DNA from: an uncultured bacterium
GTDB taxonomy: Bacteria > Babelota > Babeliae > Babelales > Babelaceae
Direction of reading: 5' to 3'
Assembly: GCA_963717435.1 (NCBI GenBank)
Contig: OY970332.1
Location: forward strand, 128,001-192,000
Length of the DNA stretch: 64,000 nt
The notes under the pieces are model-generated. The model searched no databases, was not told the DNA's origin, and worked only from the letters and a program-made list of their open reading frames with translations. Of this stretch, positions 21,797 through 51,649 are shown piece by piece (the first letter of the stretch is position 1; each line of letters begins with the position of its first letter). The position numbers and the translations under genes were made by a program.

Positions 21797-22576
21797 TTAT
21801 ATAGTCCTGCACCCCACAACCGCGATTATAGAGCTTGGTTTTAATTTTTTTATCTCTTTTGCTAAATTTACCAAAGTCGATCCAGTCGTCATAAGATCGT
21901 CAACTATTAAAATTTTTTTATTTTCGAAAGCCCCTCCCTCGATACATTCTACTTCGCCAAGGCTACGTAGAACACTCGGGACGAGCGGGTGTTTAATTTT
22001 ACTCTTAAATTTTATAAAAAATATATTTATTAAATTATTTAAATAACTATATTTTTTTAATTCAAAAGCGTTTTTTAAATTTGACTGTCTTTGATGGCTC
22101 AGAAGAGCTCTCTGGAACAAAGTTTTTTTATTTCTCCGCACAACATCAATTACTGGTTTGCCGCTAAATTTTGATATTTCTCGCGCCATTATTTCAGCCT
22201 GATTAAATCCACGACGCGAAAGCCTTGTCCAGTGTAATGGCACAGGAATTATAAAATCAAAGTCTAGATTTGAAATATCTGTTTTTTGCCAAATAATCTG
22301 CGCAAGCTGCTTGCTTGCCAATCTATCAGAAAATATTTTTGCCAAAATTAATTTTTTGAGCGGGTATTTATACTCTGATGCTGCATAAACTGACATCTTG
22401 TATTTTGGCGTAACTTCTAGTGTACAGGAGACAACCGGAGTAATTTTTTTAAAGCAGTCATCACAAAAAATATAATAATCTTTTAGAAATATATAGCAGT
22501 AGGCACAATATGGAGGCGATAAAATTTTATAAAATTTATCTAAAATAAATTTCACAAATTTAAAATTAAAAAGCAT
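21797..22576 (-). CDS. comF: ComF-family phosphoribosyltransferase-like protein with in-frame insertion
   Basis: CAYC...CDDC zinc finger, IPVPLHW.R...RGFNQA, ILIVDDLMTTGST; extra about 35-40 aa before the PRT motif. Confidence 0.88.
   Translation of the reverse strand: MLFNFKFVKFILDKFYKILSPPYCAYCYIFLKDYYIFCDDCFKKITPVVSCTLEVTPKYKMSVYAASEYKYPLKKLILAKIFSDRLASKQLAQIIWQKTDISNLDFDFIIPVPLHWTRLSRRGFNQAEIMAREISKFSGKPVIDVVRRNKKTLFQRALLSHQRQSNLKNAFELKKYSYLNNLINIFFIKFKSKIKHPLVPSVLRSLGEVECIEGGAFENKKILIVDDLMTTGSTLVNLAKEIKKLKPSSIIAVVGCRTI
21935..21989 (-). repeat. Palindromic element copy 1 (type A arms), in frame inside comF
   Basis: Minus strand CCCGCTCGTCCCGAGTG-TTCTACGTAGCCTTGGCGAAGTAGAAT-GTATCGAGGGA. 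Confidence 0.9.
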
Positions 22577-22591
22577 TAAATATAGCCAAAA

Positions 22592-23068
22592 TTAAAGCCA
22601 AGAAAAATATATAAATAAATTTAATATAGCGTTGCTGATAAGTCCGGCAGCAATATCGTCAGCCAATATACCAAGCGCACCAGGATATTTTTCGACTTTA
22701 TTTATGCCCATGATTTTTGTTATATCAAAAAATCTAAACAGCAAAAAGCCAAGAATAAAAGCTTTGTAAGAAACCGGTATCATAAAAAAAGTAAATAAAC
22801 ATCCTACAAATTCATCAAATACAATCTGGGACGGGTCACTTGAATAAAAATATGTAAGCGCATTTTTGATTATAATATAGCCAATAACTGTTAACAAAAT
22901 AAGTATCAGAGCAGACGAAAACATAGAACGAGATAAATTCGGGTTATTATTAAACACCCACATGAAAATTAAACCGGGAACAGATCCCCAGGTCCCAGAT
23001 GCAGGCAAATAACCCAAGGGCCCAATCGTTGCAAGCCAGTTAAAAATTGTATCAAGATTAGTCTTCAT
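22592..23068 (-). CDS. pgpA: Phosphatidylglycerophosphatase A
   Basis: GYLPASGTWGS, DPSQIVFDEFVG, FLLFRFFDITK, GILADDIAAG. Confidence 0.93.
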   Translation of the reverse strand: MKTNLDTIFNWLATIGPLGYLPASGTWGSVPGLIFMWVFNNNPNLSRSMFSSALILILLTVIGYIIIKNALTYFYSSDPSQIVFDEFVGCLFTFFMIPVSYKAFILGFLLFRFFDITKIMGINKVEKYPGALGILADDIAAGLISNAILNLFIYFSWL

Positions 23069-23537
23069 AAAATATTATCTTAATAAACATAAAAAAAACC
23101 CCTAAAGTGATAAAAATATCTGCGATATTAAAATTTGGAAAAGAAAAACCGCCAAAATTAAAAGCCAAAAAATCAACCACGCCCTCGTAAAAAAATCTGT
23201 CTATCAAATTCGATACCCCACCAGAGAGAACCAAAAATTCTGCAAAGACAGAGTGGCCCGAATTTAATCTATTAATAATATATAGCCCCAGAAGAGCCAA
23301 AACAACTGCTATTATAAAACTTATTAAATAGAAAAAAATAATATTATTTGTGTGAAATACACCCCAAGATATGCCCCTATTAAAGCTTAAATCAAAAGAA
23401 AAAAATTTGTTTATATAAACCGGGGTTTGCAAATACGATCTTGCAAAAAATTTTGTTAGTTGATCAAGCAGAATAATAAATATACCCAGAAAAAGTAGCC
23501 CCAGAAGCTCTTTTTTTCTTAAAATATTTTTTAGCAT
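23058..23537 (-). CDS. lspA: Lipoprotein signal peptidase II
   Basis: LDQLTK, NRGISWG, GGVSNLIDR, GVVDF, FNIADIFI. Confidence 0.95.
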   Translation of the reverse strand: MLKNILRKKELLGLLFLGIFIILLDQLTKFFARSYLQTPVYINKFFSFDLSFNRGISWGVFHTNNIIFFYLISFIIAVVLALLGLYIINRLNSGHSVFAEFLVLSGGVSNLIDRFFYEGVVDFLAFNFGGFSFPNFNIADIFITLGVFFMFIKIIFYED

Positions 23538-23589
23538 GTTTGTGTTACTTTCTCAGCACTTATTATTAATTTTTAATTATTTTTTATTA

Positions 23590-25926
23590 CTATCTTATTG
23601 CAGCACCAAGTTGTTGAAGATCACTGACCACAGACTCGTAAACTTCGTCTATTTCGGGCTTTGTTAAAGTTTTGTTTTCGTCAGAAATCACAAACCTCAT
23701 AGTTATAGATTTTAAATCTTTCCATTCAGATTTATAGAAATGGTCAACAAGTTCAACAGACTTTATTTTGCCGTCAGCAGATTTTATAACTTTTTGAATC
23801 TCCCCGACTGTAACAGTTTGAGGTATGAGCATGCTTACATCAAGATCGACTTCAGGATATTTTGATAAATGCGCAAACTTCTTAACTTCGGGTTTATAAT
23901 TCAAAATAAAGTCAGCGTTAAGATCAAATACAAAACTGTCCCCCTCAAAGAACTTTGAACCAAATTGCGGCAAAACTTTCCCCGCAACTCCAACTAGAGC
24001 ATCTTTATGGTATATAGCGGCAGTTTGGTATTTATCAAACCAAATATCAAGATTAAAATCGGGCTTGGCAAAATTCACTTCGATAGACATAGATTTAAAA
24101 AATCTTTCAAGCTCAGATTTTATCTCATAAAAATCTACAGGAGACTTTCTGTCTGCGACTATCCCTGATAGTCTTAAAATTTCTTTGGATTTATTTTCAA
24201 GTTTCAGCCAGGTTTTATTAAGCTCAAAAAATCTTAAATTAATCTGACTTGCCTGAGCAGTAACTATAGCTTTAAATAAATTTGGAATTAACGAAGTGAC
24301 AAGTCTTTTGTTGTTTTCAGATATTGGATTAATTAAATTTATAGTGTTATCAGGCTCAAAATTTATTTGGCGCAGAAAATCTTCGTCGTAAAGGGCATAT
24401 GTATAAACTTCATGCATATTAGCAGAATGCGCAAAAAAGTTTTTGACTTTACGCGTATTTGTTACATTAGTTAAGTCAAAATTCCCCATAGCTCTTTCTG
24501 GCAGCTTGTGGGCGATATTTGTATAACCAAAAAATCTTGCTATTTCTTCAAGTATGTCTTCTTTTATTGTCACATCTTTTGACGATCTTGAAGTTGGAAC
24601 AGTAACCTGATAAGAGTTGTCTTTCAAAAGTCTTACGCCAAAACCCAGTTTTGAAAAAATATCCAGTATCATATCCTGACTTACTGAAACACCCATTCTT
24701 GAGTTAATCATGTCCTGAGATATTGTAATTATTTTTTCTTGTGCAAGATTGCCCAAAGATATAATATTTTGCGATGACTTATAAGCAATTTTATAGTCAT
24801 CTAACAATTTTAAAAATCTGGTTATTGCTGTAGTGTTTTGGTTTGGATCGAGAGTTTTTTCAAAACGGGCCGAGCTTTCTGTCCGTTTTTTTAATCTCAA
24901 AGATGTTTGTCTAATTATCGACGCTTCAAAATTTGCAGACTCAAGTAATATAGACTTTGTCGAATTACTAACAGCTGTCGATTCCCCACCCATTATGCCA
25001 GCAAGTGAAACAGGAGTTGTTCCGTCATAGATAGCTAAATCTTTTGAACTAAGAGTTACAGAGCTGTTATCAAGCAGATTTAAAACTTCGCCGTCAGTCG
25101 CAAATTTTGCAGCAATTTTTTTATTTTTTAATTTGTCTGCGTCAAATGCGTGCATTGGCTGCGACGTATCAAGCATGACGTAATTTGTTAAGTCAACAAT
25201 AAAATCTATTGGGCGAGAATCTAGTCTTGCCAATCTATGTGCAATAAATAAATTAGATGCGTTATTTTCTATCTTACTTATATACAAACCAGCAAATCGC
25301 TTACAGCTATTCAGATCCTGAATCTCAAACTCAAACGGATTATCTGTGCTATCAACAGATTTTTTGTCGTAATGCTTTATCGACTGGTTAACCATAAATC
25401 TCTCTTCTGGCCATAGTTCCAGATCCAATATTGCAGCTATTTCACGAGCAAATCCGCGATGACCCCACATATCGGGTCTATTGGTTATCGATTTATTATC
25501 AACAGTTAAAATATAATCTTCGGTTTCAACATGCTTTCTCCAACCGCCCTTTAGATATTCTGGGTCAGAGATCCATAAATTTGTTAATAAGCCGTCTTTA
25601 TCGGAGTTTAGATCTTTTAGAGTCGCCCATTTTAGTTTTTTATTTTCTTTACGAGCAAGATATATCCCGTTATTAATTAGATCAGTTCGGTTATTATTTT
25701 CTGCAAGAATTTCTACTAGCTTATTATTTTCTGTATTATAAAACTCAAAAGAGTTACTATTTTTTACAGCTTTGACCAAAATAAAATTATCTGGATTAAA
25801 TTCGACTTTATTAAAGTGCTCAGTTTCTGCAGTAATCTGATTAAATCTTTTGACCAGATCAACTATATCATATTTTTTCCAGTCAGCGTTTATATGATCG
25901 AAAATCCAAGAAATAGAGAGTTTCAT
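23590..25926 (-). CDS. pheT: Phenylalanine-tRNA ligase beta subunit
   Basis: MKLSISWI, DNKSITNRPD, QPMHAFDAD, AGIMGG, LLESANF, SSARFEK, EDILEEIARFFGY, C-terminal FDX-ACB domain. Confidence 0.96.
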   Translation of the reverse strand: MKLSISWIFDHINADWKKYDIVDLVKRFNQITAETEHFNKVEFNPDNFILVKAVKNSNSFEFYNTENNKLVEILAENNNRTDLINNGIYLARKENKKLKWATLKDLNSDKDGLLTNLWISDPEYLKGGWRKHVETEDYILTVDNKSITNRPDMWGHRGFAREIAAILDLELWPEERFMVNQSIKHYDKKSVDSTDNPFEFEIQDLNSCKRFAGLYISKIENNASNLFIAHRLARLDSRPIDFIVDLTNYVMLDTSQPMHAFDADKLKNKKIAAKFATDGEVLNLLDNSSVTLSSKDLAIYDGTTPVSLAGIMGGESTAVSNSTKSILLESANFEASIIRQTSLRLKKRTESSARFEKTLDPNQNTTAITRFLKLLDDYKIAYKSSQNIISLGNLAQEKIITISQDMINSRMGVSVSQDMILDIFSKLGFGVRLLKDNSYQVTVPTSRSSKDVTIKEDILEEIARFFGYTNIAHKLPERAMGNFDLTNVTNTRKVKNFFAHSANMHEVYTYALYDEDFLRQINFEPDNTINLINPISENNKRLVTSLIPNLFKAIVTAQASQINLRFFELNKTWLKLENKSKEILRLSGIVADRKSPVDFYEIKSELERFFKSMSIEVNFAKPDFNLDIWFDKYQTAAIYHKDALVGVAGKVLPQFGSKFFEGDSFVFDLNADFILNYKPEVKKFAHLSKYPEVDLDVSMLIPQTVTVGEIQKVIKSADGKIKSVELVDHFYKSEWKDLKSITMRFVISDENKTLTKPEIDEVYESVVSDLQQLGAAIR

Positions 25927-26075
25927 CTTTGGGCCTTAATTAATTACCAAACTTTTACCAAACTTATAGAATAATAAAATTAGAAAATTAGCTCTTGCGC
26001 TATATTCTGTGCCATATAAAAATTATTATATAAAAAATTATATAGAGATTAAGATAAATTAAAACAACCAAACCA

Positions 26076-26618
26076 TCAATTTTTTATTAAATACTCAGGA
26101 TCCAGAATTTGAACTTTCCCGGTTAATTGCAAGCCCGACGAAGTTAAATTTAAATCTAATACCCCGTGGCCCTTTTGGGAAATTGGAGAATATACGTTTT
26201 TGTATAACTTAGCTTCGTTCAGATCGTCAATTTTATAAACAGATGCCATATATCCTGATGGACATAAACCACATTTTGAACAGTTTTTGTCATCGATCAC
26301 ATAGTGCTTATATTTTATGCTAAGCTTCGATGGCTTTCTTTGCCCTAAAATACTATACACAATAAAAAAGCCACTCGCTGGTCCCTCAGGGGTCTCAAAA
26401 CTAAACTCATCAAGTTTTATAGAAGAATTTTTTCTGATTTTGAACTTTTTTTGCTGACTAGAGCTAGGCAACGACTTTATCGAATCTTTTAACGTTGATA
26501 TTGTTACCTGCACAGGTTTATCTGTTGAATTTATAAAAGAACCCAACTTTAAACCTGCTGATTTTAAATTAAAAAAAGCCAACACAACAATCAAGCAAAA
26601 TATTTTGCCTCTATCCAT
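26076..26618 (-). CDS. Secreted hypothetical protein
   Basis: Signal peptide, FINSTDKPVQV beta-strand start, CSKCGLC cluster. Confidence 0.6.
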   Translation of the reverse strand: MDRGKIFCLIVVLAFFNLKSAGLKLGSFINSTDKPVQVTISTLKDSIKSLPSSSQQKKFKIRKNSSIKLDEFSFETPEGPASGFFIVYSILGQRKPSKLSIKYKHYVIDDKNCSKCGLCPSGYMASVYKIDDLNEAKLYKNVYSPISQKGHGVLDLNLTSSGLQLTGKVQILDPEYLIKN

Positions 26619-26744
26619 ATTGTTCCACCCCTAACCCTAAAAGTCTGCACTAATAAAGAAAAGCAAACTTTTCTGTTTTAATTATATATACCAGCCAAAC
26701 CTGACTGCAATAATTTTATTCAAAAAAAATTTATAAGAGAGCAA

Positions 26745-26912
26745 GTGGGCTGCCCTACGACATGTGTCCTGCGTAGCCTTGACGTAGAGGGAAACCTGCC
26801 AAGCTCCGTTGTGGCCTGGGGGAAGTGGGGCCTGCCCGTATCTTTGGAGTCGTAGGGGGGCCTGCCCTCCGTAGCCTGCCAAGCCGGGAGGCGTGGATAG
26901 GCGTAGGGGGGG
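26745..26912 (+). repeat. GC-rich cluster of degenerate CCTG(T/C)CC-led hairpin repeats
   Basis: Units such as TGTCCTGCGTAGCCTTGACGTAGAGGGA (26765-26792) and CCTGCCCTCCGTAGCCT...GGCGTAGGGGGGG (26861-26912), related to the element at 61888-61917. Confidence 0.65.
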
Positions 26913-27010
26913 CTTTTGAAAAAAAATAAACTTCTTCTATACTATAATTATAGGTAAAATTATAGCTAAACAGCCCTAATTAGCCCTAAGTCTCACAAAA
27001 TGGAGCAGAT

Positions 27011-29131
27011 ATGACAAATTTTAAAAAACATATATTTTCGATAATTTGGGTAATTCTAGGGGTTTTTACGCCCTTAAATGCCTCAAATATCGCTTTAAAC
27101 CAACAAAAATATGAATTTTTGTGTTCTACCCTGCTCTCAAATGAAACTAAGGACCAAGAGGTTTCTGAGGTTGAAGATAAGAACCTACAACAAGGGAACA
27201 TTTGGAGCAGACTTTCTGAGCTTGTCTTAGGAAAAAGACAAAAAACACCTGATTTGAATATAAAGACATTAAATAACTACGAAAAACTGGATTTAACTCT
27301 AAGTAATATTTCACCCTGCCAAGCCGATTTTGGGGTCGTTGAGGAGCATGTGATGAAAGAACTTAGTTTAACTACAGGTGCAGGTTCAAATAAGCAGGAG
27401 CATTTGGTTAATTCTATAAACAGATGTTCGAGCATATTTGGCTATATTACGCTTGCTCAAGAGATTTCAAACCCTACGGACAATATCGAACTCTTGGAAA
27501 AAAAGCAGGAGCTTTGCAAGCAGTTTTTAAACTCTGACAAGGCCAGAGAAAAAATCACTCAAAATCTTAAAGATATTAAAACGGGCGAAGATTCTTTACT
27601 TAGACTTTATGAAAAAAAGAATATGTTTCACCATAAAGTTAAAGAGTATAGTATCGAGAAATATCTTTCTTCTAACCCTGTTCTTAAACCACTTGGAAAA
27701 GAACTTGATTCTAGCCCAACGGCTCTTACCCACTGGAAACGTGCCGCTATTTTGAACAAGCTGTCCGGAACATTAAACTTCCCATTCGTTGGAAGTGTTG
27801 CAGGTGGTGCATTCTTAATAAAGAACGTTCAGTGGTTACTATCTACGGACATTGCGCAGGGCATAAAACAGGTTAAAGCTCTAACTGAGTATGTTAAAGA
27901 CACACAAATGGTCAAGACTTTAACAACTTTTACAGACACAAAATATCTATACAAAAGCTTTATGGAGTCTGAGACAAGCACAAAAGTTAAGTTGGCGCTT
28001 TTAGCAGCAGTGCTGGCGGTGCCCTATGGGATAATATACAGAGTGCAGCTAGATAACATATTTGGCGGAATAGACTTTGATAATCAGTTGGTTAACAAAG
28101 TAAAAACCGAAATCCAAAATATTTCGATATTAATTAAAGCTTTAATTAATATTAATAGTTTCGCGCAGAATTATAAAAACAAAAAATATTTCGAGCATAT
28201 TAAGGGCCTAGAATACTTAAATAATGTATGCACAAAGCCTGAACTGATTTCAGAAAAATTAAAGCAGCTATTAGAAATAATATTATCTGGAAAAGAGATT
28301 ACCGATGGTGAAGCTCTTGCTTCATATTATCTTCTGGATGACGTCAAGAAAGAGATAATGCCTGCTCTAGAGGTTATAGGTCAAATTGATGTTGCAGTTT
28401 CAACAGCTAGTTTAATAAAAGAGTTTGAAAACAAAAGAGTTAAATTTAGCTTTGTTAAATTTGTTAAATCAGATAGGCCATATTTAATAATCAAAAATGG
28501 CTGGACCCCGTTAGTTAATCCAGAATTTGTTGTTGCGACAGATTTTGAAATTAATGGGCCAAGAGACATAAAAAACATGATGTTAACAGGACCCGGTGGT
28601 TGCGGTAAATCTACAAGTATGAAAGAGCTTTGTAATAATATTATTATGGCTCAAACACTTGGTATTGCCCCTGCTGATAGCATGGAACTTGCGCCTTATA
28701 GCAAAATCTGCACGGCTATTGGTGTCGAAGAAGATTTAAGCAGAAATAAATCTAAGTTTATGGCCCAACAAGAGCGCATGAATAATATAGAAAAGACTAT
28801 CGACGAAACAGACAGGCTTGTGTTTATAGCAGTCGACGAGTGCTATAACGGGACAACTGAGATTCTTGGAGCAAAATTATTATATAATTTCGCATTAAAA
28901 GCGGGTCAGTCAGAACACACCACTTCGATAATTTCAACCCACTTTAGGGTTGGCGCCGAAGTGCCGAACTTCTCTAATTTCCAGGTTGAATTACTTGAAC
29001 CTACACCCGGTAAATTTAAAAGAACATTTAGGCTTCTTGATGGAGTTTGTGAGTGGTGGTTGCATGATGCTGAAAAAGCTGCGCGCTTTGCTCGTTGGCT
29101 CCATGGTATGGAGATGGTCTCGGGCATATAA
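27011..29131 (+). CDS. MutS-like ATPase (domains III/V only) with signal peptide and internal hydrophobic segments
   Basis: IGQIDVAVSTA, GWTPLV, LTGPGGCGKST, MAQTLG, SKFMAQ, VDECYNGT, ISTHF; no mismatch-binding domain evident. Confidence 0.8.
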   Translation: MTNFKKHIFSIIWVILGVFTPLNASNIALNQQKYEFLCSTLLSNETKDQEVSEVEDKNLQQGNIWSRLSELVLGKRQKTPDLNIKTLNNYEKLDLTLSNISPCQADFGVVEEHVMKELSLTTGAGSNKQEHLVNSINRCSSIFGYITLAQEISNPTDNIELLEKKQELCKQFLNSDKAREKITQNLKDIKTGEDSLLRLYEKKNMFHHKVKEYSIEKYLSSNPVLKPLGKELDSSPTALTHWKRAAILNKLSGTLNFPFVGSVAGGAFLIKNVQWLLSTDIAQGIKQVKALTEYVKDTQMVKTLTTFTDTKYLYKSFMESETSTKVKLALLAAVLAVPYGIIYRVQLDNIFGGIDFDNQLVNKVKTEIQNISILIKALININSFAQNYKNKKYFEHIKGLEYLNNVCTKPELISEKLKQLLEIILSGKEITDGEALASYYLLDDVKKEIMPALEVIGQIDVAVSTASLIKEFENKRVKFSFVKFVKSDRPYLIIKNGWTPLVNPEFVVATDFEINGPRDIKNMMLTGPGGCGKSTSMKELCNNIIMAQTLGIAPADSMELAPYSKICTAIGVEEDLSRNKSKFMAQQERMNNIEKTIDETDRLVFIAVDECYNGTTEILGAKLLYNFALKAGQSEHTTSIISTHFRVGAEVPNFSNFQVELLEPTPGKFKRTFRLLDGVCEWWLHDAEKAARFARWLHGMEMVSGI

Positions 29132-29155
29132 GCTATAACTACTTTAATAAATCAT

Positions 29156-29192
29156 AAAATAGTACACCGTAGAACCGTGTACTATTTTTTTT
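29156..29192 (+). terminator. Rho-independent terminator
   Basis: AAAATAGTACAC / GTGTACTATTTT inverted repeat plus T-run. Confidence 0.7.
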
Positions 29193-29293: not shown

Positions 29294-30217
29294 ATGGAAA
29301 AAATAATTCTCTTTTATAAATACGTAAAACTAACCTATCCACACCAAGTTATGAAATGGCAAAGACAGCTTTGCTCGCAACTTGGCCTAAAGGGCAGAAT
29401 CGTGCTTGCAACAGAAGGCATTAATGGCACACTGGGCGGATCGGTAGAGGCTTGCGAAATTTATAAGAAAGAGATGGAAGCCAGCGAATTCTTTAAAAAT
29501 ATAGACTTTAAAGAAAGCGAAGGTGGAGCAGACTGCTTTCCAAGACTAGAAATCAAAGTTAAAAAAGAAATTACACATTTGGGTCTGGATACAGAACTTT
29601 ATACAGCAGAAAATGGTGGAATACACTTAACGCCAGAAGAAGCCCATAACTTAATGGCAAATCCTCCAAAAGATTTGATTATTCTTGATGGTAGAAATAA
29701 TTACGAAGCGGCAATTGGCAAATTCGTAAATGCTATAACACCTGATGTTAACCATTTTAGAGAGTTTCCAAATTATATAGATAATAATTTAGAGCAGTTT
29801 AAAGATAAAGAAGTCTTGATGTATTGCACGGGTGGGATACGTTGCGAACGCGCTTCAACTTACCTAAAATCTAAAGGCGTAGCCAAAAACGTTTACCAAA
29901 TTCTTGGTGGAATACACAGATATGCAGAAAAATATCCTGATGGCTTTTTCAGGGGCAAGAACTACGTATTTGATGCACGAGTAACTGTAAGAATTAATGA
30001 CGACATTTTGGGTTCTTGCAAGTTTTGCAATATCCCATTCGATGATTATACTAACTGCGTTAATTCTGTGTGCAATAAGCAGATTATAGTTTGTCCAAAA
30101 TGCTGCCAAGAGAATATTAATACGTGTAGTGCTGCATGCGCAGAACTTGTAAAAAACAAATCTGTAGTTGTTCGTCAAAAGCCTAAAAAGATTAATATAT
30201 CAGCTTGTAGTATATAA
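29294..30217 (+). CDS. trhO: tRNA uridine(34) hydroxylase / rhodanese-related protein (UPF0176)
   Basis: LFYKY, KGRIVLATEGINGT, DGRNNYE, MYCTGGIRCE, LGGIHRY, GKNYVFDAR, Cys-rich C-terminus. Confidence 0.9.
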   Translation: MEKIILFYKYVKLTYPHQVMKWQRQLCSQLGLKGRIVLATEGINGTLGGSVEACEIYKKEMEASEFFKNIDFKESEGGADCFPRLEIKVKKEITHLGLDTELYTAENGGIHLTPEEAHNLMANPPKDLIILDGRNNYEAAIGKFVNAITPDVNHFREFPNYIDNNLEQFKDKEVLMYCTGGIRCERASTYLKSKGVAKNVYQILGGIHRYAEKYPDGFFRGKNYVFDARVTVRINDDILGSCKFCNIPFDDYTNCVNSVCNKQIIVCPKCCQENINTCSAACAELVKNKSVVVRQKPKKINISACSI

Positions 30218-30236
30218 AATTAAGGGGTTGATTATC

Positions 30237-31418
30237 ATGACCGTTCAAACTGTAACTGAAAATTATAATAATTTAGTTAATTTTGATCATGAGTTGATCC
30301 AAGTTAATATCCCGCTTAAAGACAAAATTTGGTTCAGAACCGGTGGTCCCGCTAAATATTTTTGTGAACCCAAAAACGCACAAGAATTCGGGCGAGCACT
30401 CGATTTTGCAAAATGTAATAATCTTGAGATTTTTGTTCTCGGCCAAGGCGCTAATGTTCTTGTCAGCGATGACGGCTTTGACGGACTTGTTATCAGGCCA
30501 AAAATAAATTTTATAGAGTTACTCGATCCCTCGATACAAAATTCCTGCGGAATTTCACTCGGGACGAGCGGGTCATCTTCAAATAATATAAGCACAGTAG
30601 ATACAAAAAAAACAGAAGAAATAAACAAACAAGAAGATCTCAACAAAGAAAATTTATCCCACCGCTCGTCCCGAGTGTTTTTCGAAAGCGAAGCTGAGAA
30701 AAATGTATCGAGGGATATTGCGGACCAAACACTTGTAAAATCAGGCTCGGGAGTAATCTTTCAAGATTTAATTAATTTCTGCTTAGACAATAACATGGTT
30801 GGCCTAGAAGAATTTAGTGGAATACCCGGCACAGTTGGCGGATCAGTATTTATTAATATTCACTACTTTGAGTTTTTATTGAGTCAGTTTTTAGAATCAG
30901 CAGAAGTAATAAATAAAAATAGCGGCGAAATATTAACTGTCGATAAAAACTGGTTTAATTTCGGGTATAACTATTCACAACTTCATGAAGAAAAATATTA
31001 CTTAATCTCTGCAACTTTTAAATTAAAAAAAGCTACCGAACTTGAAGCTGCTTATTCTCGCGGACGTAGCCATGAGATAGCAAGACAAAGAGCAAAAAAA
31101 TATCCTGTAACAAATACATGCGGCAGCTTTTTTAGAAACTTTCATGATCACGAAGTTACGCTTGTAAGTAATAATAAAAAATTAATTTATGTTGCTTACT
31201 ATTTAGACAAAATAGGAGTTAAGGGGACATTATCTGTTGGTGATGCGATAGTATCTTATCAACATGCTAACATGATAGTTAATAGAGGCGCTGCAACTTC
31301 TAGTGATATTATTAATCTCGTAAAAACCATGCAACAACTTGTTAAAGAAAATTATAATATAACACCACAACCTGAGTGCAGATTAATTGGTTTTAAAGAA
31401 TACCCATTATTAAAGTAA
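30237..31418 (+). CDS. murB: UDP-N-acetylenolpyruvoylglucosamine reductase with about 65-aa in-frame insertion
   Basis: FRTGGPA, LGQGANVLVSDDGFDGLVI, GLEEFSGIPGTVGG, CGSFFRN, HANMIVN, PECRLIG. Confidence 0.93.
   Translation: MTVQTVTENYNNLVNFDHELIQVNIPLKDKIWFRTGGPAKYFCEPKNAQEFGRALDFAKCNNLEIFVLGQGANVLVSDDGFDGLVIRPKINFIELLDPSIQNSCGISLGTSGSSSNNISTVDTKKTEEINKQEDLNKENLSHRSSRVFFESEAEKNVSRDIADQTLVKSGSGVIFQDLINFCLDNNMVGLEEFSGIPGTVGGSVFINIHYFEFLLSQFLESAEVINKNSGEILTVDKNWFNFGYNYSQLHEEKYYLISATFKLKKATELEAAYSRGRSHEIARQRAKKYPVTNTCGSFFRNFHDHEVTLVSNNKKLIYVAYYLDKIGVKGTLSVGDAIVSYQHANMIVNRGAATSSDIINLVKTMQQLVKENYNITPQPECRLIGFKEYPLLK
30527..30572 (-). repeat. Palindromic element copy 2 (type A arms), in frame inside murB
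   Basis: Plus strand TCCCTCGATAC-AAAATTCCTGCGGAATTT-CACTCGGGACGAGCGGG. Confidence 0.9.
30662..30715 (+). repeat. Palindromic element copy 3 (type A arms), in frame inside murB, inverted relative to copy 2
   Basis: CCGCTCGTCCCGAGTG-TTTTTCGAAAGCGAAGCTGAGAAAAAT-GTATCGAGGGA. Confidence 0.9.
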
Positions 31419-31423
31419 TTTTA

Positions 31424-31472
31424 TCACGCGACCCTTCGATACACCCTGCGGGCACTCAGGGCGAGCGCGTGA
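31424..31472 (-). repeat. Palindromic element copy 4 (type B arms), immediately after murB stop
   Basis: Plus strand TCACGCGACCCTTCGATAC-ACCCTGCGGG-CACTCAGGGCGAGCGCGTGA. Confidence 0.9.
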
Positions 31473-31518
31473 AAATAAATTATATAAAACTAAGCATTAA
31501 ATTTGAGAGTTTATTTTT

Positions 31519-32460
31519 ATGACACTAATATTTGTTTTATACGCACTTATTGCATCAACTTTTGTTATGGCAAAATATGCACTGTTTTATGCAAAGCCCA
31601 TATTTTTGATAGGGGTCAGGATGGTACTGGCCGGAACAATATTATTGGGCTATTTAAAATTATTTGATAAAAACAATTTTAAAATCGACAAAACTGATAC
31701 TAAAAACTTTCTTCTAGTAGCTTTATATCACATATATTTGTCTTTTATATTAGAGTTTTGGGCGTTGCAATATTTAAGCTCATCAAAAACTAATATTATT
31801 TATTCGATTACGCCGTTTATATCTGCTTTTATAGCTTATTATTTTTATAAAGAAAAACTTAATATATATAAAAAAATTGGAATGCTCTTGGGGATTTTGG
31901 CTATAATCCCAGTTTTAGTGGCGCAGTATAACCCACAAGAATCTGGCTCTATACTTAATTTCTCAACTGCTGAAGTTGCCATGCTTGCGGCAGTTTTTTT
32001 CGGCGCTTACGCTTGGTTTTTGATCAAAGATCTTATGAACAAAAATTATTCTTTAATTTTAATTAATGGCTTTGCAATGTTGGTTGGCGGAATCGGAGCT
32101 TTGGCAACATCGTTAATTTTTGAAGTCTTAATACCAGTATTTTCAGAATATAATAAATATGGTCAAGTTAGTTTTGCCAATATTAATTTGGTCTCAGATT
32201 ATTATAAGTTTTTTTTGTGGATCGGGGCACTAATTTTAACAAGTAATATTATTGTTTATAATTTATTTGGCTTTTTAATAAAAAAATATTCGATCACTTT
32301 CTTAACATTAGCAGGATTTTTGTCGCCAGTATTTGGAGCAATCGGGGGGTACTTTTTATTAAAAGAGCCCATATCTTGGCACTATTTGGCATCCCTTGCT
32401 TTAATTACTCTGGCATTGTATATTTTCAATGTCCAAGAGCGGGTTTCAAGAAAGTTATAA
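31519..32460 (+). CDS. EamA/DMT-family transporter
   Basis: About 10 TM segments, PIFLIGVRMVLAG, YSITPFISA..AY...KEKL, LSPVFGA...Y.LLKEPI. Confidence 0.88.
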   Translation: MTLIFVLYALIASTFVMAKYALFYAKPIFLIGVRMVLAGTILLGYLKLFDKNNFKIDKTDTKNFLLVALYHIYLSFILEFWALQYLSSSKTNIIYSITPFISAFIAYYFYKEKLNIYKKIGMLLGILAIIPVLVAQYNPQESGSILNFSTAEVAMLAAVFFGAYAWFLIKDLMNKNYSLILINGFAMLVGGIGALATSLIFEVLIPVFSEYNKYGQVSFANINLVSDYYKFFLWIGALILTSNIIVYNLFGFLIKKYSITFLTLAGFLSPVFGAIGGYFLLKEPISWHYLASLALITLALYIFNVQERVSRKL

Positions 32461-36751: not shown

Positions 36752-36754
36752 CCG

Positions 36755-44228: not shown

Positions 44229-44460
44229 ACTTCCCCCAGTTTTTCTAAATTTACAATTTTAAATATAGAAATAAATTTTAACTAACAAATTATAATATAT
44301 TTCTATCTTCAATTATAAATATACAAAAAAGAAACCAGGAAATGCAATAGTATGCATTCCCCGGTTTAAAATGTTCAATTATTAGTTTAAGTCTGAGTTA
44401 AATTTTAATGATAAATACCAACTTAACCAATTTTGGTCCAGACAGGTATCTAAACAAAAA

Positions 44461-44491
44461 AACCGGGGAAGGCGTTTATTCCTTCCCCGGT
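44461..44491 (-). terminator. Rho-independent terminator
   Basis: ACCGGGGAAGG / CCTTCCCCGGT stem with adjacent A-run; a related hairpin lies at about 44332-44367. Confidence 0.75.
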
Positions 44492-44519
44492 CAATAAAAT
44501 TCGATTTAAAGTCTAAGTG

Positions 44520-45299: not shown

Positions 45300-45439
45300 T
45301 AGAAACACTCCATAAAAAAATTATTATACGATTAAACTCAACGATTTTTATCAATATTCAGTTAAGATTTAAGATAGGATTTAACCCTAACTAATAATCA
45401 TAATACCATAACAACCCATATTTTCAACTGGTCAATAAT
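45238..45439. repeat. About 200-bp direct repeat (promoter, 5' UTR, signal peptide), copy at 46018-46218
   Basis: Near-identical AAACACTCCATAAAAAAATTATTATACGATTAAACTCAACGATTT...TTTTCAACTGGTCAATAAT in both copies. Confidence 0.85.
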
Positions 45440-45550
45440 GCTGCCAAGAATGGGGTGCCAAGGGCGCCTTGGAGTGGAAAACTCAAAGAACAGCTATTCT
45501 CAGGTTAGAAAATACTTAAATACAGCATGTTTTTCATATTAAAAACAAAA

Positions 45551-45582
45551 AACTGGAGAAGGTTTTTATTCCTTCTCCAGTT
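45551..45582 (-). terminator. Rho-independent terminator
   Basis: AACTGGAGAAGG / CCTTCTCCAGTT stem, homologous to 44461-44491 with compensatory changes. Confidence 0.75.
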
Positions 45583-45653
45583 ACTTTAGTGAATTAATAA
45601 GGGGCCACAAGGACCCCTTATTTTATTTTCAAAATTAGTTAATAATAACTAAA

Positions 45654-46079
45654 TTATGCTGGAATAACACCAAAAAACGTAGCTACTATAGCGTTACCTA
45701 TTTTTTCTCTATTATAAGTAAGAGCACCAGTTGCAACTGCTCCTGCTACCAAACCAACTGTTGTTTTCTTGTGATTTTTGATCCAAGAAGCAACATTATT
45801 ACCTGCTTGTTTAGCTTTAGCTCCGACGAAAGAAGCAACATTGCTCGCTGCTTTTTTAGCGTTAGCTTTAACTGATTCTAATTTACCAGCTTTGTTAAGC
45901 TTATAAAGACCTGTAACTGCAGCGACAGGAACAAGAACTTTTGCAGCTGTTTTTGCATTATTTCTGGTCAAAGAAGCTTTAGCCAAAGCCGCAACTCCTG
46001 CAAACTTATATTCTGCTGCTTGAACATTAGATGCAAATACTATTAAAGCAAGTGACATCAATTTAAATTGTAGTTTCAT
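45654..46079 (-). CDS. Secreted Ala/Lys-rich protein (WIKNHKK + TM module)
   Basis: Signal peptide shared with the 44520 ORF; ASWIKNHKKTTVGLVAGAVATGALTY. Confidence 0.75.
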   Translation of the reverse strand: MKLQFKLMSLALIVFASNVQAAEYKFAGVAALAKASLTRNNAKTAAKVLVPVAAVTGLYKLNKAGKLESVKANAKKAASNVASFVGAKAKQAGNNVASWIKNHKKTTVGLVAGAVATGALTYNREKIGNAIVATFFGVIPA

Positions 46080-46382
46080 TTGAAACACTCCATAAAAAAA
46101 TTATTATACGATTAAACTCAACGATTTCATAAATATTCAGTTAAAATTTAAGATATCTTTTAAACCCAACTAATAGCCATAATACCACAACTGCCATTAT
46201 TTTCAACTGGTCAATAATCAATGCCGGAGCCTACCTGAAAAAAATGGGCATATTGTGAAAAAATCTCTAGCAGCTTGTCTTTGTCAGCAAGCTGTTTTAA
46301 GCTACTTTGAACAAAAAAGTGGGCACAAAAGAGCAAAAGAGAACAATAAAAAAAGCATAAAAAGAGTAGTAAAGAAAGCAGC

Positions 46383-47879
46383 ATGAATAACACAAATAAC
46401 TTTAATAAGACAAATAATCAAAAACCGGGTATTTTGCGGGCCAAGTTTATATCTATAATATTAACTGCTATTTTGGCCACAACTTTGCCAATTGTGGGGA
46501 AAAAATCATTAAAAACGAGCCAGACATATTTTCTTGCAAGACCACTGTATCACAATATGCCCGCGCGGCAGACCTTGTGGACGCCAATTATTAATGACGA
46601 TTGTAATGCTTGTGAAAATGGGGTAAAAACGCATGTGTGCGGAACAATTCAAGCAGTTGCGCTGTATCAAAAATCACTTTGCGATTCGAACAAAGATGTC
46701 GCAGGATATTTTTTGTTTAAATGTAAAAATTGCTTAACTGTTAAGGGTGATAATGCGATAAGCAATATTACCCAGCGTGATATTCGAGCAGAATGGATCG
46801 GGCTGCCAGCAGATTTTTCAGGCGATTTTTGCATAAACCCCAAACAGAAGCAAGAGGGCTTTATGCTTGAATATAGCCAAAAACTGAGAAGATTCTCGAG
46901 CCATAAGCTATTTAAAAACTTGTATATAAATGTGATAATGCCATTTGTTTGGGTAAAAAACCAGACAAATCTTACCGGAAACACGCAAATCATTCAGGCA
47001 TTTAATCAAGAAAGCTGGCAGTTTGCCAAAATTTCAGATCATGAACAAAGCAGTCACGGGCTAGCCGAAATTCGAGCATCTATAGGGGCAACTTTGTATA
47101 ATCAAGACGACTTTTTGGTCGCAACTGAAACATTTGGAATAATTCCATTAAAAAAATATAAATACCCGCATTATTTGTTTATGCCTATTGTTGGTACCAA
47201 CAATAAATTAGGTTTTGGGACAAATCTGAGATTTGATCTGCCATTGCAAGAATATTACGCTGACTATAAAGCTATATTATATTTCTGCATAGAAGGGCAA
47301 TATTATCTAAAAGATACCCAGCGCAGGACCCTTGATTTGCGCCATAACCCCTGGAGCAGGTATTTGTTATACCAAAACCAATATTCAGGAGAGATTGTTC
47401 AGGGTGTGAATATTTTAACCCCTTGGGTTATCGTTAACCCTTACTGCTTTGTTGAGCTTGATGCCGGGGTAAGATTTGAATTTGGGGGCCTCAATTTTGA
47501 GCTGGGCTATAACTTTTGGTCAAATGGTAGAGAGAAGCTAGAATTGAATGAAAACTGCTGCCAAAAGACAGAATTTGTTTTCCAGAACTATGGCATATCT
47601 GGCAGCGCCCCACTAACTTCAGCTTCAAACAGTACTATAAACAATCTGGCCCCTAATGACAGTAGCTTTGTAACCTTAATGGCGTCAGATTTAGATCTTA
47701 CATCGGGGGGGTCTCGTGGGGCACAGGTTAATAAATTTTATGGATTTCTGGGATACCGAACCGCGACACATAGATTATTAACTCTTTTTGCAGGGCTTGG
47801 TGGCTCCATCGAAGTTCCAGATTCAAACACTGCATTTAAGCAAGCGGCAGGATGGTTCAAGCTGGGCTTAGAATTTTAA
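46383..47879 (+). CDS. Secreted hypothetical protein, probable outer-membrane beta-barrel
   Basis: Hydrophobic leader, amphipathic beta strands, C-terminal GWFKLGLEF (BAM-type signal). Confidence 0.65.
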   Translation: MNNTNNFNKTNNQKPGILRAKFISIILTAILATTLPIVGKKSLKTSQTYFLARPLYHNMPARQTLWTPIINDDCNACENGVKTHVCGTIQAVALYQKSLCDSNKDVAGYFLFKCKNCLTVKGDNAISNITQRDIRAEWIGLPADFSGDFCINPKQKQEGFMLEYSQKLRRFSSHKLFKNLYINVIMPFVWVKNQTNLTGNTQIIQAFNQESWQFAKISDHEQSSHGLAEIRASIGATLYNQDDFLVATETFGIIPLKKYKYPHYLFMPIVGTNNKLGFGTNLRFDLPLQEYYADYKAILYFCIEGQYYLKDTQRRTLDLRHNPWSRYLLYQNQYSGEIVQGVNILTPWVIVNPYCFVELDAGVRFEFGGLNFELGYNFWSNGREKLELNENCCQKTEFVFQNYGISGSAPLTSASNSTINNLAPNDSSFVTLMASDLDLTSGGSRGAQVNKFYGFLGYRTATHRLLTLFAGLGGSIEVPDSNTAFKQAAGWFKLGLEF

Positions 47880-47979
47880 ATAAATTATGTTATAATTTTC
47901 TTCAAAAAGTGGCAATTAAAAGCAAAAATCCAAAATATTACAAAAATATTAACACTTTCACTATCAAAGTTATAACTTC

Positions 47980-48402
47980 ATGAATAAACACAAAATCAAA
48001 TTACTTTTTGCAGTCAGTTGTTATTTGCCAAGCTTATTAGCCCCCCTGCGCCCGGTAGTAACAGAAGATAACAGGCTTATCTTTGAGAGTGATGAAGCAG
48101 ATGAAAACTCTAATGAACAAAATAAACGAGTTTTAACAGAACAACAGGCGATAGTCGTTAAAGTATTATGCATAATAAGCAAAGAAAATAATTGGCCGCA
48201 AGAGTATATCTCTTACTGGGCATATTTGGCTCTAGCAAATTCAAATTTAGAGGCCATAATAATTCTCAAATTTATGGCCAGGGAAAAATATTTTTCTGAA
48301 AAATCTTCTGGCCAATCTGAACCCAGACTTCAAAGTCTTTTAATTTCAATGGAAAAACTGGTTTTCCTAAACCCCACAATCGAACAAATACTTAATAGTT
48401 AA
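47980..48402 (+). CDS. Hypothetical protein with signal-peptide-like N-terminus
   Basis: 140-aa ORF filling the intergenic space; hydrophobic leader. Confidence 0.55.
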   Translation: MNKHKIKLLFAVSCYLPSLLAPLRPVVTEDNRLIFESDEADENSNEQNKRVLTEQQAIVVKVLCIISKENNWPQEYISYWAYLALANSNLEAIIILKFMAREKYFSEKSSGQSEPRLQSLLISMEKLVFLNPTIEQILNS

Positions 48403-48423
48403 ACTTGCAAAAACTTGATTAAC

Positions 48424-48458
48424 AAAAGAGGGCCGGATTTTCTCCAGCCCTCTTTTTT
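48424..48458. terminator. Bidirectional terminator downstream of groEL
   Basis: AAAAGAGGGCCGGA / TCCAGCCCTCTTTT hairpin between convergent genes. Confidence 0.8.
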
Positions 48459-48471
48459 TAATTAAATATTA

Positions 48472-50120
48472 TTAATACATGCCTGGCATGCCGCCCCATG
48501 CGGCCATGGCCAGCATGAGCAGCCGTCTCTTTTTTCTCTTCAGGAATATCAGCAATAATCGCTTCAGTAGTTAACAATAAGCCAGCAATAGATGCTGCAT
48601 TTTGTAATGCTGAACGTACAACTTTAGCAGGATCAATAATACCCGCTTCAATCATATCAACAAATTCACCAGTTTTTGCATCAAAGCCGATATTGCCACG
48701 ATTCTGCACGAACACTGTTAACAATAACAGATGCTTCAAAGCCAGCATTTGAGCAAATAATACGCAAAGGCTCTTCAAGCGCACGATGAACAATTTGTGC
48801 ACCAAGTTGTTCATCACCTTCAAGCTTTAATTTATTAACAGCTTCTTGAGCACGTAGTAATGCAACACCACCACCAGCAACAATACCTTCTTCAACAGCA
48901 GCACGTGTTGCATGTAAAGCATCTTCAATGCGATCTTTTTTTTCTTTCATTTCAGTTTCAGTTGCAGCACCAACTTTAATAACTGCAACACCACCAGCAA
49001 GTTTAGCAAGACGTTCTTGAAGTTTTTCTTTGTCATAATCAGAAGTAGTATTTTCAATTTGAGACTTTGATTTGCATAACGCGGCCTTTAATAGCTCTGT
49101 CGCTGCCAGAGCCTTCAATAATAGTAGTATGTATCTTTAGTAACAACCACTTTTTTAGCGCGACCAAGATCAGTTAAGTGTAACATGTTTCAAGCTTTAA
49201 ACCAAGATCTTCAGAAATCAAGTTTACCACCAGTTAAGATAGCAATATCTTCAAGCATTGCTTTACGACGATCACCAAAACCAGGTGCTTTAACTGCTAC
49301 AACATTAAGATGCCACGAAGTTTATTAACAACTAATGTTGCAAGTGCTTCGCCTTCAACATCTTCTGCAATAATAAATAATGGACGTACCAGATTTTGCA
49401 ACTTGTTCAAGTACTGGCAATAAGCTCTTCATGCTTGAAATTTTTTTTTCAAAAATCAAAATAAATGGATCATTCATAACTGCTTCCATTTTTTCTGCAT
49501 CAGTTACAAAATAAGGAGAAAGATATCCACGATCAAATTGCATACCTTCAACAACTGTCAATTCACTTTCCATGCCTTTTGCTTCTTCAACGGTAATAAC
49601 ACCATCGCGACCAACTTTTTCCATAGCTTGAGCAATTTGTTCACCAATAAAGGTGTCTGAATTTGCAGAAATAGTAGCAACTTGCTCAATCTCTTTTTTG
49701 CTACTTACTTTTTTTGAACGAGCTTTTAATATCTTCAACAACTGCTATAACTGCTTTATCGATACCACGCTTTAGTTCCATAGGATTAGCGCCAGCAGTA
49801 ACATATTTATTACCTTCACGGAAAATAGCTTGAGTCAAAACTGTTGCGGTAGTTGTTCCATCACCAGCAACATCTGCTGTTTTGCTTGCAACTTCACGCA
49901 CCATTTGCGCGCCCATATTTTCAACAGGATCCGCTAGTTCAATTTCTTTTGCAACACTCACACCATCTTTGGTAATCGCAGGTGATCCAAATGCTTTTCC
50001 ATAAGCAACATTACGACCACGGGGCCCAAGGGTTACTTTTACTGCATTTGCTAAGGTATCAACGCCATTTGCCAATTTTTGACGCGCTTCTACGCCAAAT
50101 AAAATTTTTTTTCCAGCCAT
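48472..50120 (-). pseudogene. groL: Chaperonin GroEL, interrupted by at least ten single-base indels (likely sequence error)
   Basis: Fragments carry [65 protein letters not shown] tail; full collinear coverage once indels are removed. Confidence 0.9.
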
Positions 50121-50167
50121 GATGTTCCCATTTTGTTTTAAAATTTTTGTTCTGTTAATTAATAAAC

Positions 50168-50222
50168 CCCGCTCGTCCCGAGTGCCCGACGTAGCTTTAG
50201 CGTAGACGGGTGTATCGAGGGA
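50168..50222 (+). repeat. Palindromic element copy 5 (type A arms) between groES and groEL
   Basis: CCCGCTCGTCCCGAGTG-CCCGACGTAGCTTTAGCGTAGACGGGT-GTATCGAGGGA. Confidence 0.9.
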
Positions 50223-50239
50223 TGTTCTGGTAATTAATT

Positions 50240-50527
50240 TTATTTTTCGACTATTCCAAGAATTTCATCTTCACGAATCATAATGTGCTTATCGCCAGTT
50301 TCGGTTCCAGCATATTTGCCAAAAAAGACCGTATCGCCGACCCTTACTTGCATTGGAATAACTTTACCTTCAGAATTGCTCTTTCCCGGCCCGACTGCCA
50401 AAACTTTGCCAGTTTGACCTTTTTCTTTTGCACTATCAGGGATAATTAAGCCACCTGCTGTTTTTTCTGTGTGTTCAAGACGCTCAACCCAAACTCTATC
50501 ACCTAAGGGTCTAATTTTGTCATTCAT
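50240..50527 (-). CDS. groS: Co-chaperonin GroES
   Basis: [44 protein letters not shown]. Confidence 0.97.
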
Positions 50528-50590
50528 GCAATCACCCTAAATTTGAAACTGTGTTTGTAAAAAAATATTAGTTCTAAAAATCACAAGTTA

Positions 50591-50618
50591 ATTATACAAT
50601 AAGATAAAAAGAGTTCAA
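50591..50618 (-). promoter_or_regulatory. Sigma70-type promoter for groESL
   Basis: Minus strand TTGAAC-N16-TATAAT. Confidence 0.5.
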
Positions 50619-50747
50619 TAAAAGAGTTAAATGCTTATAGAAACTCACTCAGATTTTTTATATTATTTTTTTAAACTTATAAAAAATTAGTTATAAAAAA
50701 TAATATTACTATAATTATTAAAATTAATTATTTCGGAGAGTAGTAAA

Positions 50748-51452
50748 ATGATACAAATATACCCTTCACTAATCGCGTGTAGTATTTCAAAAAATATTTC
50801 CCAGGTAGATAAACTAGATAACTGCATAAAATCAACAGAACCTTTCTCGGCAGGTTATCACATAGATATTATGGACAATAAATTTGTCCCAAATTCAAGC
50901 TGGAGCCCAGAAGAGGTTAATATAATTAGAACAAAAACAGACAAGCCATTTTTTATTCACTTGATGGTCGAAAATCCCCAAAACTATTTAGATCTTTTAA
51001 ATTTAAATAATAAAGACACTATCTGCTTTCATGTTGAAACCCATGACGATCACAATAATTTACTCAAAAAAATTCATGAAAAAAATCTTCTTGCAAGCTT
51101 GGCGCTAAAACCGAAAACTCTTGTAGAATCTATCTTAAATTATATTCATGATATAGATCATGTATTATTAATGTCAGTTGAGCCGGGTTTTTCTGGACAA
51201 GAGTTTTTATTACAATCTTTTGACAGATTTAAAGCTTTAAAATCACTTAAAGATCTTAACCAAGCAGCGTTTAAAATTGGGCTTGATGGTGGGATTAATA
51301 AAACAAACATAAAAGAGATAAGCGATCTTGGAGCAGATGACGTTGCAATCGGCTCAGCAATATTCGGCAGCAGCACCCCTGAAAAATCTATCAAAGAGCT
51401 TTATGATATTGTTCACGAAGATAAGGATATTAAAAAACTTGAAGGGGCATAA
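50748..51452 (+). CDS. rpe: Ribulose-phosphate 3-epimerase
   Basis: HIDIMDNKFVPN, HLMVENP, FHVE, LMSVEPGFSGQ, DGGIN, GSAIF. Confidence 0.93.
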   Translation: MIQIYPSLIACSISKNISQVDKLDNCIKSTEPFSAGYHIDIMDNKFVPNSSWSPEEVNIIRTKTDKPFFIHLMVENPQNYLDLLNLNNKDTICFHVETHDDHNNLLKKIHEKNLLASLALKPKTLVESILNYIHDIDHVLLMSVEPGFSGQEFLLQSFDRFKALKSLKDLNQAAFKIGLDGGINKTNIKEISDLGADDVAIGSAIFGSSTPEKSIKELYDIVHEDKDIKKLEGA

Positions 51453-51600
51453 AACACCAAGAGCTAATTTAAATCTCCCGCAAAATACCCTTTAATAAAT
51501 TATTCGCACAAATTTATTTCAACTAACCTTTGAATAATTTACCCGCACCTGAATATAGTTAGACTATATCCGCATATTTCTGATACAAAAAATTAAAGAG

Positions 51601-51649
51601 GCGCTCGCCCTGAGTGAAATTCCGCAGGAATTTAGTATCGAAGGGTCGC
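51601..51649 (+). repeat. Palindromic element copy 6 (type B arms, inner hairpin identical to copy 2)
   Basis: GCGCTCGCCCTGAGTG-AAATTCCGCAGGAATTTA-GTATCGAAGGGTCGC. Confidence 0.9.

Follow-up and report, generated by a model that had tools for sequence, protein, structure and literature searches.

What spreads small palindromic repeats that settle both between genes and within protein-coding frames? The agent has been an open question since the Rickettsia palindromic elements (RPEs) were described. The same question is raised by a window of 64,000 nucleotides (nt) from an uncultured member of the Babeliales (Babelaceae; assembly GCA_963717435.1, contig OY970332.1). The genome is closed, in a single contig of 1,198,203 bp with 34.6% G+C, and the window covers its bases 128001-192000. 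A first-pass annotation, made from the letters of the window alone, had described six GC-rich elements with shared arms and had proposed that they belong to a non-autonomous selfish family that adds peptide loops to housekeeping proteins. Reading of the window sequence confirmed all six elements, in their positions and in their arms (Table 1). We then followed the family through the whole genome and its relatives. The roughly 100 hairpins of this genome are probably the target repeats in a system of two parts that is completed by a GIY-YIG nuclease of 94 amino acids (aa).

A hairpin family and a repeat-flanked GIY-YIG gene

The 15-nt left arm of the element, CGCTCGYCCYGAGTG, has 89 exact occurrences genome-wide, and the right arm, GTATCGARGG, has 98. 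Counting as a full element both arms within 80 nt with at most one mismatch, the genome holds 100 full elements, 2 matches to the left arm only and 46 to the right arm only; these last, being 10-nt matches, look like mostly chance occurrences. The left-arm pattern read backwards gave no match in any of the 41 genomes searched, and the size of the family is far above chance. The proposal of a non-autonomous family is supported, in that the repeat is dispersed and mostly non-autonomous. Base profiles place the ends of the unit about 2 nt outside the left arm and 6 nt outside the right arm, for a usual length of 51-65 bp. Three nested copies measure 91-96 bp (genome positions 270644-270736, 780665-780760, and 800143-800233). 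They carry additional hairpin modules between the arms, which suggests either that one module inserted into another's loop or that templates were switched.

Each copy is a structured hairpin, as the covariation of its stems demonstrates. The tiers of the unit are an outer stem, then a second stem of 4 bp, an internal loop that is conserved and an inner hairpin that is exchangeable. In the outer stem, the variable flanks beyond the second stem often pair (for example CACCCG...CGGGTG). All four pairs of the second stem are retained in 90 of the 100 copies across seven pair combinations: TCCC/GGGA (55 copies), CCCT/AGGG (25), CCCC/GGGG (4), TCCT/AGGA (2), TCCC/GGGG (2), TGCC/GGCA (1), and TACT/AGTA (1). 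The internal loop presents two invariant unpaired strings, GAGTG and, opposite it, (T)GTATCGA. An inner stem of at least 5 bp is found in 90 of the 100 copies, compared with 5% of shuffled sequences, and takes at least eight different sequences; the C-GNA-G triloop is present in 83 copies, compared with 7% of shuffles. Covariation is the stronger argument for structure, because folding of the whole element as DNA is only moderately better than that of mononucleotide shuffles (mean z -1.97). The two types of arm, A and B, that the first-pass annotation had treated as separate kinds are compensatory versions of one 4-bp stem, and the compensated pairs rule out two kinds of element. Its remark that type A arms are free of stop codons while type B arms hold TGA is correct.

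Neighboring copies tend to face each other: 13 of 19 adjacent pairs are in +/- arrangement with the right arms inward. Composite dimers of about 160 bp recur at genome positions 193741-193905, 238623-238781, 375696-375859, 438284-438454, 452905-453058, and 830579-830749. They consist of an element, a 39-52-nt AT-rich spacer of shared sequence and an inverted element that bears the inner hairpin ATCACC...GGTGAT, and constitute a higher-order unit resembling a miniature transposable element with inverted repeats (MITE).

The first-pass annotation had found no partner enzyme within the window, which holds, and had proposed looking for a GIY-YIG gene flanked by the motif. Such a gene sits outside the window, in a cassette at genome positions 1066025-1066468, where a full element ends 23 nt before the ATG of a 94-aa single-domain GIY-YIG gene and an inverted element starts 16 nt past its stop codon. 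The genome has five GIY-YIG matches, and only this gene is flanked by the repeat. Eight close homologues (51-65% identity), encoded in four genomes of another family of the same order in which the repeat has also bloomed, are all flanked alike. Three have full elements and five have a minimal form with the arms joined directly (for example CGCGCTCGTCCTGAACTTGTTGAAGGAT...AGCGC); of the minimal forms, one was caught by the regular expression and four were recognized by reading the sequence. Six more distant GIY-YIG matches (30-36% identity) are without such full-element flanks.

The cassette extends well beyond the order. A profile search of genome contigs found at least 573 loci encoding relatives of the 94-aa protein. 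The best 80 of these include loci from metagenome-assembled genomes of Babeliales/Dependentiae and, in addition, from Sphingobium, Sphingomonas, Methylococcaceae, Gallionella, Chloroflexota/Dehalococcoidia, Binatia, and others. Allowing the arm core up to two mismatches within 200 nt of the gene, 50 of the 80 loci carry it upstream (+) and downstream (-), in the cassette orientation. It is present on at least one side in 71 loci and on neither side in 9, and the arrangement is reversed in 11. In NCBIfam, small GIY-YIG proteins matched only a group I intron endonuclease family, below its cut-off.

Gene and repeat also co-occur within the order. The exact arm, a pattern that misses variant arms, was found in 60 of 261 genomes, with blooms scattered over four families: 89 copies in the window's genome (G000), 72 in G248, 66 in G252, 52 in G250, 43 in G253, 36 in G105, and 25 in G152. 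The nuclease subfamily (E<=1e-15) is encoded in 90 of the 261 genomes, namely in 39 of the 60 arm-positive and 51 of the 201 arm-negative ones, and in 11 of the 13 genomes with at least 10 copies. In G105, which is 98% complete in 10 contigs, the sole GIY-YIG hit is 31% identical and has no arms nearby; this genome holds an orphan repeat population.

The window's genome also contains two small GIY-YIG genes of another subfamily (200100-200430 and 413440-413790), with the copy at 200267 interrupted by a TAG. Ahead of each gene comes a different GC-rich hairpin and then (A/C)GGCCAKYC, and one of the genes directly follows a sequence read by eye as a tRNA gene. This looks like a second pairing of nuclease and hairpin.

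Copies inside reading frames and their empty sites

For placement of the copies, genes were taken as greedily chosen open reading frames (ORFs) of at least 120 aa, which gave 1,024 ORFs covering 84.7% of the genome. Of the 100 copies, 31 are completely enclosed by an ORF, 3 straddle the end of one and 66 are intergenic. Nine of the 31 sit no more than 50 codons into the longest ORF, maybe upstream of the true start, and the robustly gene-internal copies number 22. Possible assembly indel errors would cause in-frame copies to be under- rather than overcounted, here and in every ORF-based count. Coding copies are rarer than under random insertion, which would place about 85 of 100 in genes. All six combinations of orientation and phase are used (4, 9, and 6 copies in the same orientation as the gene; 4, 6, and 2 in the opposite one), and the in-frame copies add predicted segments of 17-23 residues to their host proteins, in agreement with the proposed addition of peptides. 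Host proteins other than MurB, ComF, MnmG, and RecR were named by reading translations. Each element offers on average about four stop-free frames out of six (4.45 in genes and 3.80 outside), compared with 2.72 in shuffles. The suggestion that TGA-containing arms are kept out of genes fails, since 7 of 34 such copies are inside ORFs, as are 24 of 66 copies of the other type.

Among the intergenic copies, 26 of 66 lie in convergent spacers, yet these spacers make up 15% of intergenic length; another 30 are in same-direction spacers and 10 in divergent ones. We saw no clear orientation bias relative to transcription (16 vs. 14 in same-direction spacers; 19 same vs. 12 opposite in ORFs) and none by replichore. 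Intergenic copies were also examined as possible interruptions of genes, using 9 of 33 candidate flank pairs. None of these nine tight same-strand ORF pairs had one Pfam family on both flanks: six pairs had different families and three lacked a match on one or both sides.

Heavy colonization of coding frames is a trait of the window's genome and not of the repeat family, to judge from 30 of the 66 copies in a second bloom genome, G252. Not one of these 30 is robustly gene-internal; five are found in open frames of 200 aa or more, all at most 46 codons from the upstream stop. Most copies in G252 are +/- dimers about 110-130 nt apart (loci L115-L144).

By alignment with relatives, the coding copies are insertions in all four host genes tested (MurB, ComF, MnmG, and RecR). 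The composite insert of murB comprises two copies and an 88-nt A-rich spacer, about 69 codons in all, and the inner hairpin of its short-form copy is AAATTCC-GCA-GGAATTT. Seven of 13 aligned MurB homologues are without any insert, one fragment at 97% identity has the same composite insert, and five have other inserts at the same loop, some encoding element-like peptides. In ComF, the HPLVPSVLRSLGEVECIEGGA segment is missing from all nine aligned homologues, the closest at 76% identity, and the reading frame runs through the element into the conserved C-terminal phosphoribosyltransferase motif. MnmG relatives skip query residues ~135-160 in all 11 cases with a match (12 searched), and at the DNA level their two aligned blocks are a few bases apart. 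All 12 RecR relatives skip residues ~135-168. The first-pass annotation had held that three copies are translated inside comF and murB; the frame does run through all three, and their translation is presumed from it.

Insertion polymorphism is also seen among environmental relatives. A metagenome contig from run X1 matches window positions 31268-31424 with 6 differences in 157 nt and then continues without the intergenic copy, with 32 other letters in place of window 31425-31525. On contigs from runs X1 and X5, the murB insert (204-207 nt, from 30515 or 30518 to 30721) is replaced by a GC-rich palindrome of 30-33 nt; the skipped and the replacing lengths are both multiples of three. Empty sites, which the first-pass annotation had proposed to look for, thus exist in orthologues of all four proteins and in near-identical contigs, and they rule out the inserted peptides as ancestral segments.

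In other Babeliales, inserts in the MurB loop (~30515-30721) encode peptides such as PSIH...TQDER, RPECFAQQNVS, and LRTNG (P0005, P0006, P0016, P0084). The loop is either a hot spot for insertions or a permissive one. In an AlphaFold model of MurB, residues 101-161 of the 394-aa query, which make up the insert, have a predicted local distance difference test score (pLDDT) below 50 and are flanked by confident blocks. The model is of moderate quality (mean pLDDT 61, 14-row alignment) and gives weak support for a loop location. The longest murB ORF begins with a TTG at 30168, and the alignment with homologues begins near 30234.

Table 1. Copies of the hairpin element in the window, their host genes and the repeat-flanked nuclease gene (window coordinates unless stated)
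Feature	Position	Arm core	Strand	Remarks
ComF-family phosphoribosyltransferase gene, host of one copy	21797..22576		-	Protein P0121 has PF00156
ComF copy	21930..21989	21936-21987	-	Same orientation as gene; predicted to encode HPLVPSVLRSLGEVECIEGGA
murB (UDP-N-acetylmuramate dehydrogenase), two copies in one loop	30168..31418		+	
Short-form copy in murB	30522..30572	30528-30570	-	Opposite to gene; predicted to encode LDPSIQNSCGISLGTSG
Second murB copy	30661..30720	30663-30714	+	Same orientation as gene; predicted to encode HRSSRVFFESEAEKNVSRDIA
Intergenic minimal-loop copy	31424..31472	31433-31467	-	Inner hairpin CCCGCAGGG; 8 nt past murB stop
Copy in groES-groEL spacer	50168..50227	50170-50221	+	Flanking ORFs match Cpn10 and Cpn60 (Pfam)
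Intergenic short-form copy	51600..51650	51602-51644	+	TGA-containing arm version; CCCT...AGGG stem
94-aa single-domain GIY-YIG gene	genome 1066109-1066392 (outside window)			PF01541, 61.1 bits, above cut-off

The copy between groES and groEL is probably co-transcribed with both, because both genes are on the minus strand. Of this pair, groES (50240-50536) is intact and groEL (48458-50120, minus strand) is split into at least four overlapping frames, for which assembly indel errors are a more likely cause than a pseudogene.

How the hairpins may spread

By analogy with SsnA, a small GIY-YIG nuclease of Neisseria meningitidis that is compared below, the 94-aa protein probably recognizes the Babeliales hairpin and may thereby mobilize the repeats. 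It would bind the folded hairpin on single-stranded DNA (ssDNA) and nick beside it, and hairpin units would spread as the nicks are repaired or replicated. Because a covalent DNA intermediate is not formed by GIY-YIG enzymes, copying would have to rely on host repair or replication. New copies would survive where they do little harm, that is, downstream of genes, in operon spacers, and in tolerant loops if the frame is kept. Such a filter would account for the 22-31 copies that lie in frame and add short segments to housekeeping proteins.

The repeats might instead be REP-like (repetitive extragenic palindrome) elements that serve the host as terminators, as mRNA stabilizers, or as marks for nuclease destruction of incoming ssDNA in transformation. 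Copy number would then reflect selection for function, and coding copies would be tolerated by-products. The enrichment between convergent genes fits such a role, and competence is plausible in a genome that retains ComF, DprA-like (PF02481), and prepilin peptidase genes; in N. meningitidis the Ssn system does modulate transformation (Chenal et al., 2025, PMC11893778, in the portions drawn on here). On this account, however, neither the 31 copies inside ORFs nor the lack of orientation bias would be expected, and the patchy, bloom-like distribution over the order and the presence/absence differences among close relatives also speak against it. We regard it as unlikely, while a domesticated role alongside spread, such as transformation control or the marking of transcript ends, may exist.

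Mobilization in trans by an HUH (RAYT/IS200-type) or DDE transposase, the route suggested in the first-pass annotation, could draw on the general REP/RAYT precedent, on the frequency of CGTAG in inner loops and on the common inverted dimers. The closed genome, however, has no match to Y1_Tnp (PF01797)/RAYT, TnpB zinc-ribbon, rve, or DDE_Tnp_1, and what the repeat flanks is a GIY-YIG gene. With no match to these families in the closed contig, the proposal is largely refuted for the window's genome and we consider it very improbable. Hardly more credible is the idea that the conserved structure acts as an RNA motif, with the DNA repeats as copies of an RNA element. Stem covariation alone does not tell RNA from DNA pairing, and several copies, such as the one in the groES-groEL spacer and those within genes, are probably transcribed. 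Against an RNA motif, both orientations relative to genes are about equally frequent, Rfam gave no match at the gathering score for the window and eight further loci, and the loops belong to the C-GNA-G type, which forms unusually stable DNA mini-hairpins. Moreover, SsnA does not bind RNA according to the parts of Chenal et al. (2025) used here.

The pairing of hairpin and nuclease, which we prefer, has evidence against it as well. A cut-and-paste route is not obvious for an enzyme class without a covalent DNA intermediate, and there is no clean target-site duplication at the two polymorphic sites on metagenome contigs. Two genomes with the repeat, G105 (36 arm copies) and G257 (12), are without the gene at E<=1e-15, and 51 genomes have the gene without the exact arm. 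The co-occurrence counts come from related genomes, so that their signal is overstated by the Fisher P-value. The nearest Protein Data Bank chains of the 94-aa protein are UPF0213 proteins (E ~1e-14). The published SRM pattern for hairpins recognized by Ssn nucleases, HGTCWYN(0-2)YYVSBRHN(0-5)WNVSBRGN(0-2)RNCYNB, has one match in the genome, compared with one or two in each of five shuffles, and none within 300 nt of the gene at the 80 best loci. Finally, the Neisseria repeats are restriction targets for incoming ssDNA and not proven mobile DNA, as far as the portions of Chenal et al. (2025) considered here describe them.

A broader proposal can be made only tentatively, and we hold it to be somewhat short of probable. 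The ~440-bp hairpin-GIY-YIG-hairpin unit would be an autonomous minimal mobile element with the solo hairpins as its non-autonomous progeny, and Ssn-type nucleases would be the agent behind CGTC-tagged REPs and Rickettsia-type coding palindromes. If so, this Babeliales lineage would show the process under way, and loops derived from the element would be present in more than 20 of its housekeeping proteins.

Comparison with known systems

Repeats of this general kind were tied to Ssn nucleases by Chenal et al. (2025, PMC11893778), from which the following is taken in part. SsnA of N. meningitidis is a 94-aa single-domain GIY-YIG protein (CDD cd10448) that binds the NTS/SRM hairpin repeat as ssDNA only and cuts upstream. 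Its locus has the layout NTS-ssnA-NTS, and of the genomes in which SRMs exceed 200, 81% have an SsnA homologue. The Babeliales system resembles this in several ways. Both have a 94-aa single-domain GIY-YIG protein encoded between inverted hairpin repeats and solo repeats scattered genome-wide in tens to hundreds, and in both the gene and repeat co-occur over a wide, patchy host range rich in intracellular bacteria. The catalytic Tyr and Glu and a K-x-W-x-R motif are at the same positions. Residues Y17, G19, T21, E64, K68, W70, and R72 of the 94-aa protein are colinear with the SsnA peptides QPAV[Y]ILAS, TL[Y]IGVTS, and TR[E]KQLKKWNR, which we deduced from the mutagenesis primers of that study, and this supports a likely relationship between the two proteins. 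A Sphingobium genome that was looked at for SsnA membership had 11 GIY-YIG matches.

There are also differences. In the Babeliales hairpin the internal loop is conserved and the inner hairpin modular, and the SRM pattern does not fit it. The host belongs to the Dependentiae, a phylum new for an Ssn-type system; the one Dependentiae genome in the table of Chenal et al. (2025), Babela massiliensis, has 0 SRMs and no ssnA. Copies inside ORFs amount to 31% here, compared with 2% in N. meningitidis, and the portions of that paper used here do not address mobility or coding insertions. The published pattern thus overlooks a class of hairpin by which the same small nuclease is flanked in Sphingomonads, Methylococcaceae, Chloroflexota, and others.

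A second comparison is with the CGTC-tagged REPs, which Di Nocera et al. (2013, PMC3733652) equated with Neisseria dRS3 and with RPE-4 and RPE-6 of Rickettsia; this makes the RPE precedent cited in the first-pass annotation an apt one. In the parts of that paper considered, the classes CGTC-1 to CGTC-4 have an unpaired CGTC (or TGTC/CCTC) tag, an AT-starting stem of 8-9 bp, a loop of 4-5 nt, and a CCA-like tail. Like these and the RPEs, the Babeliales repeats are small GC-rich palindromes, often in inverted dimers and mostly downstream of genes, with a subset lying in frame inside known proteins in several frames. Most copies have CGTC in the left arm (CTCGTCCC), namely the 62 in which the first variable position of the arm is T. 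The stem, loop, and tail layout described for CGTC-1 to CGTC-4 was not seen in the Babeliales repeat, which is 50-65 bp long with three stem tiers and belongs to a different host phylum. With the RPEs in particular it shares in-frame palindromic insertions that are absent from orthologues, a likeness in behavior.

REP/RAYT systems (REPINs) likewise combine a single-copy enzyme gene flanked by repeats that are also dispersed in the genome, inverted dimers, and a presumed recognition of single-stranded hairpins. Unlike them, the Babeliales system has a GIY-YIG hydrolase, no HUH Y1 transposase, and arms without a 5' GTAG tag. From MITEs of DDE insertion sequences it differs in having no rve or DDE_Tnp_1 match and no clean duplication at the two polymorphic sites.

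Our literature search found no work joining a Rickettsia palindromic element and GIY-YIG, and since 2024 it found SsnA and GIY-YIG together in Chenal et al. (2025) alone; among the titles listed on palindromic repeats in Dependentiae, none concerned such elements. An Ssn-like architecture and RPE-like in-frame behavior are known features; the hairpin departs from the published patterns, the Dependentiae are a new host phylum, and the coding fraction is unusually high. Four things come together in this genome: the candidate enzyme is intact within its cassette, hairpins have bloomed to about 100, about 30% of the copies are coding, and environmental relatives show presence/absence polymorphism. 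It thus offers a compact system in which a GIY-YIG ssDNA nuclease can be tested as the driver of repeat spread and peptide addition.

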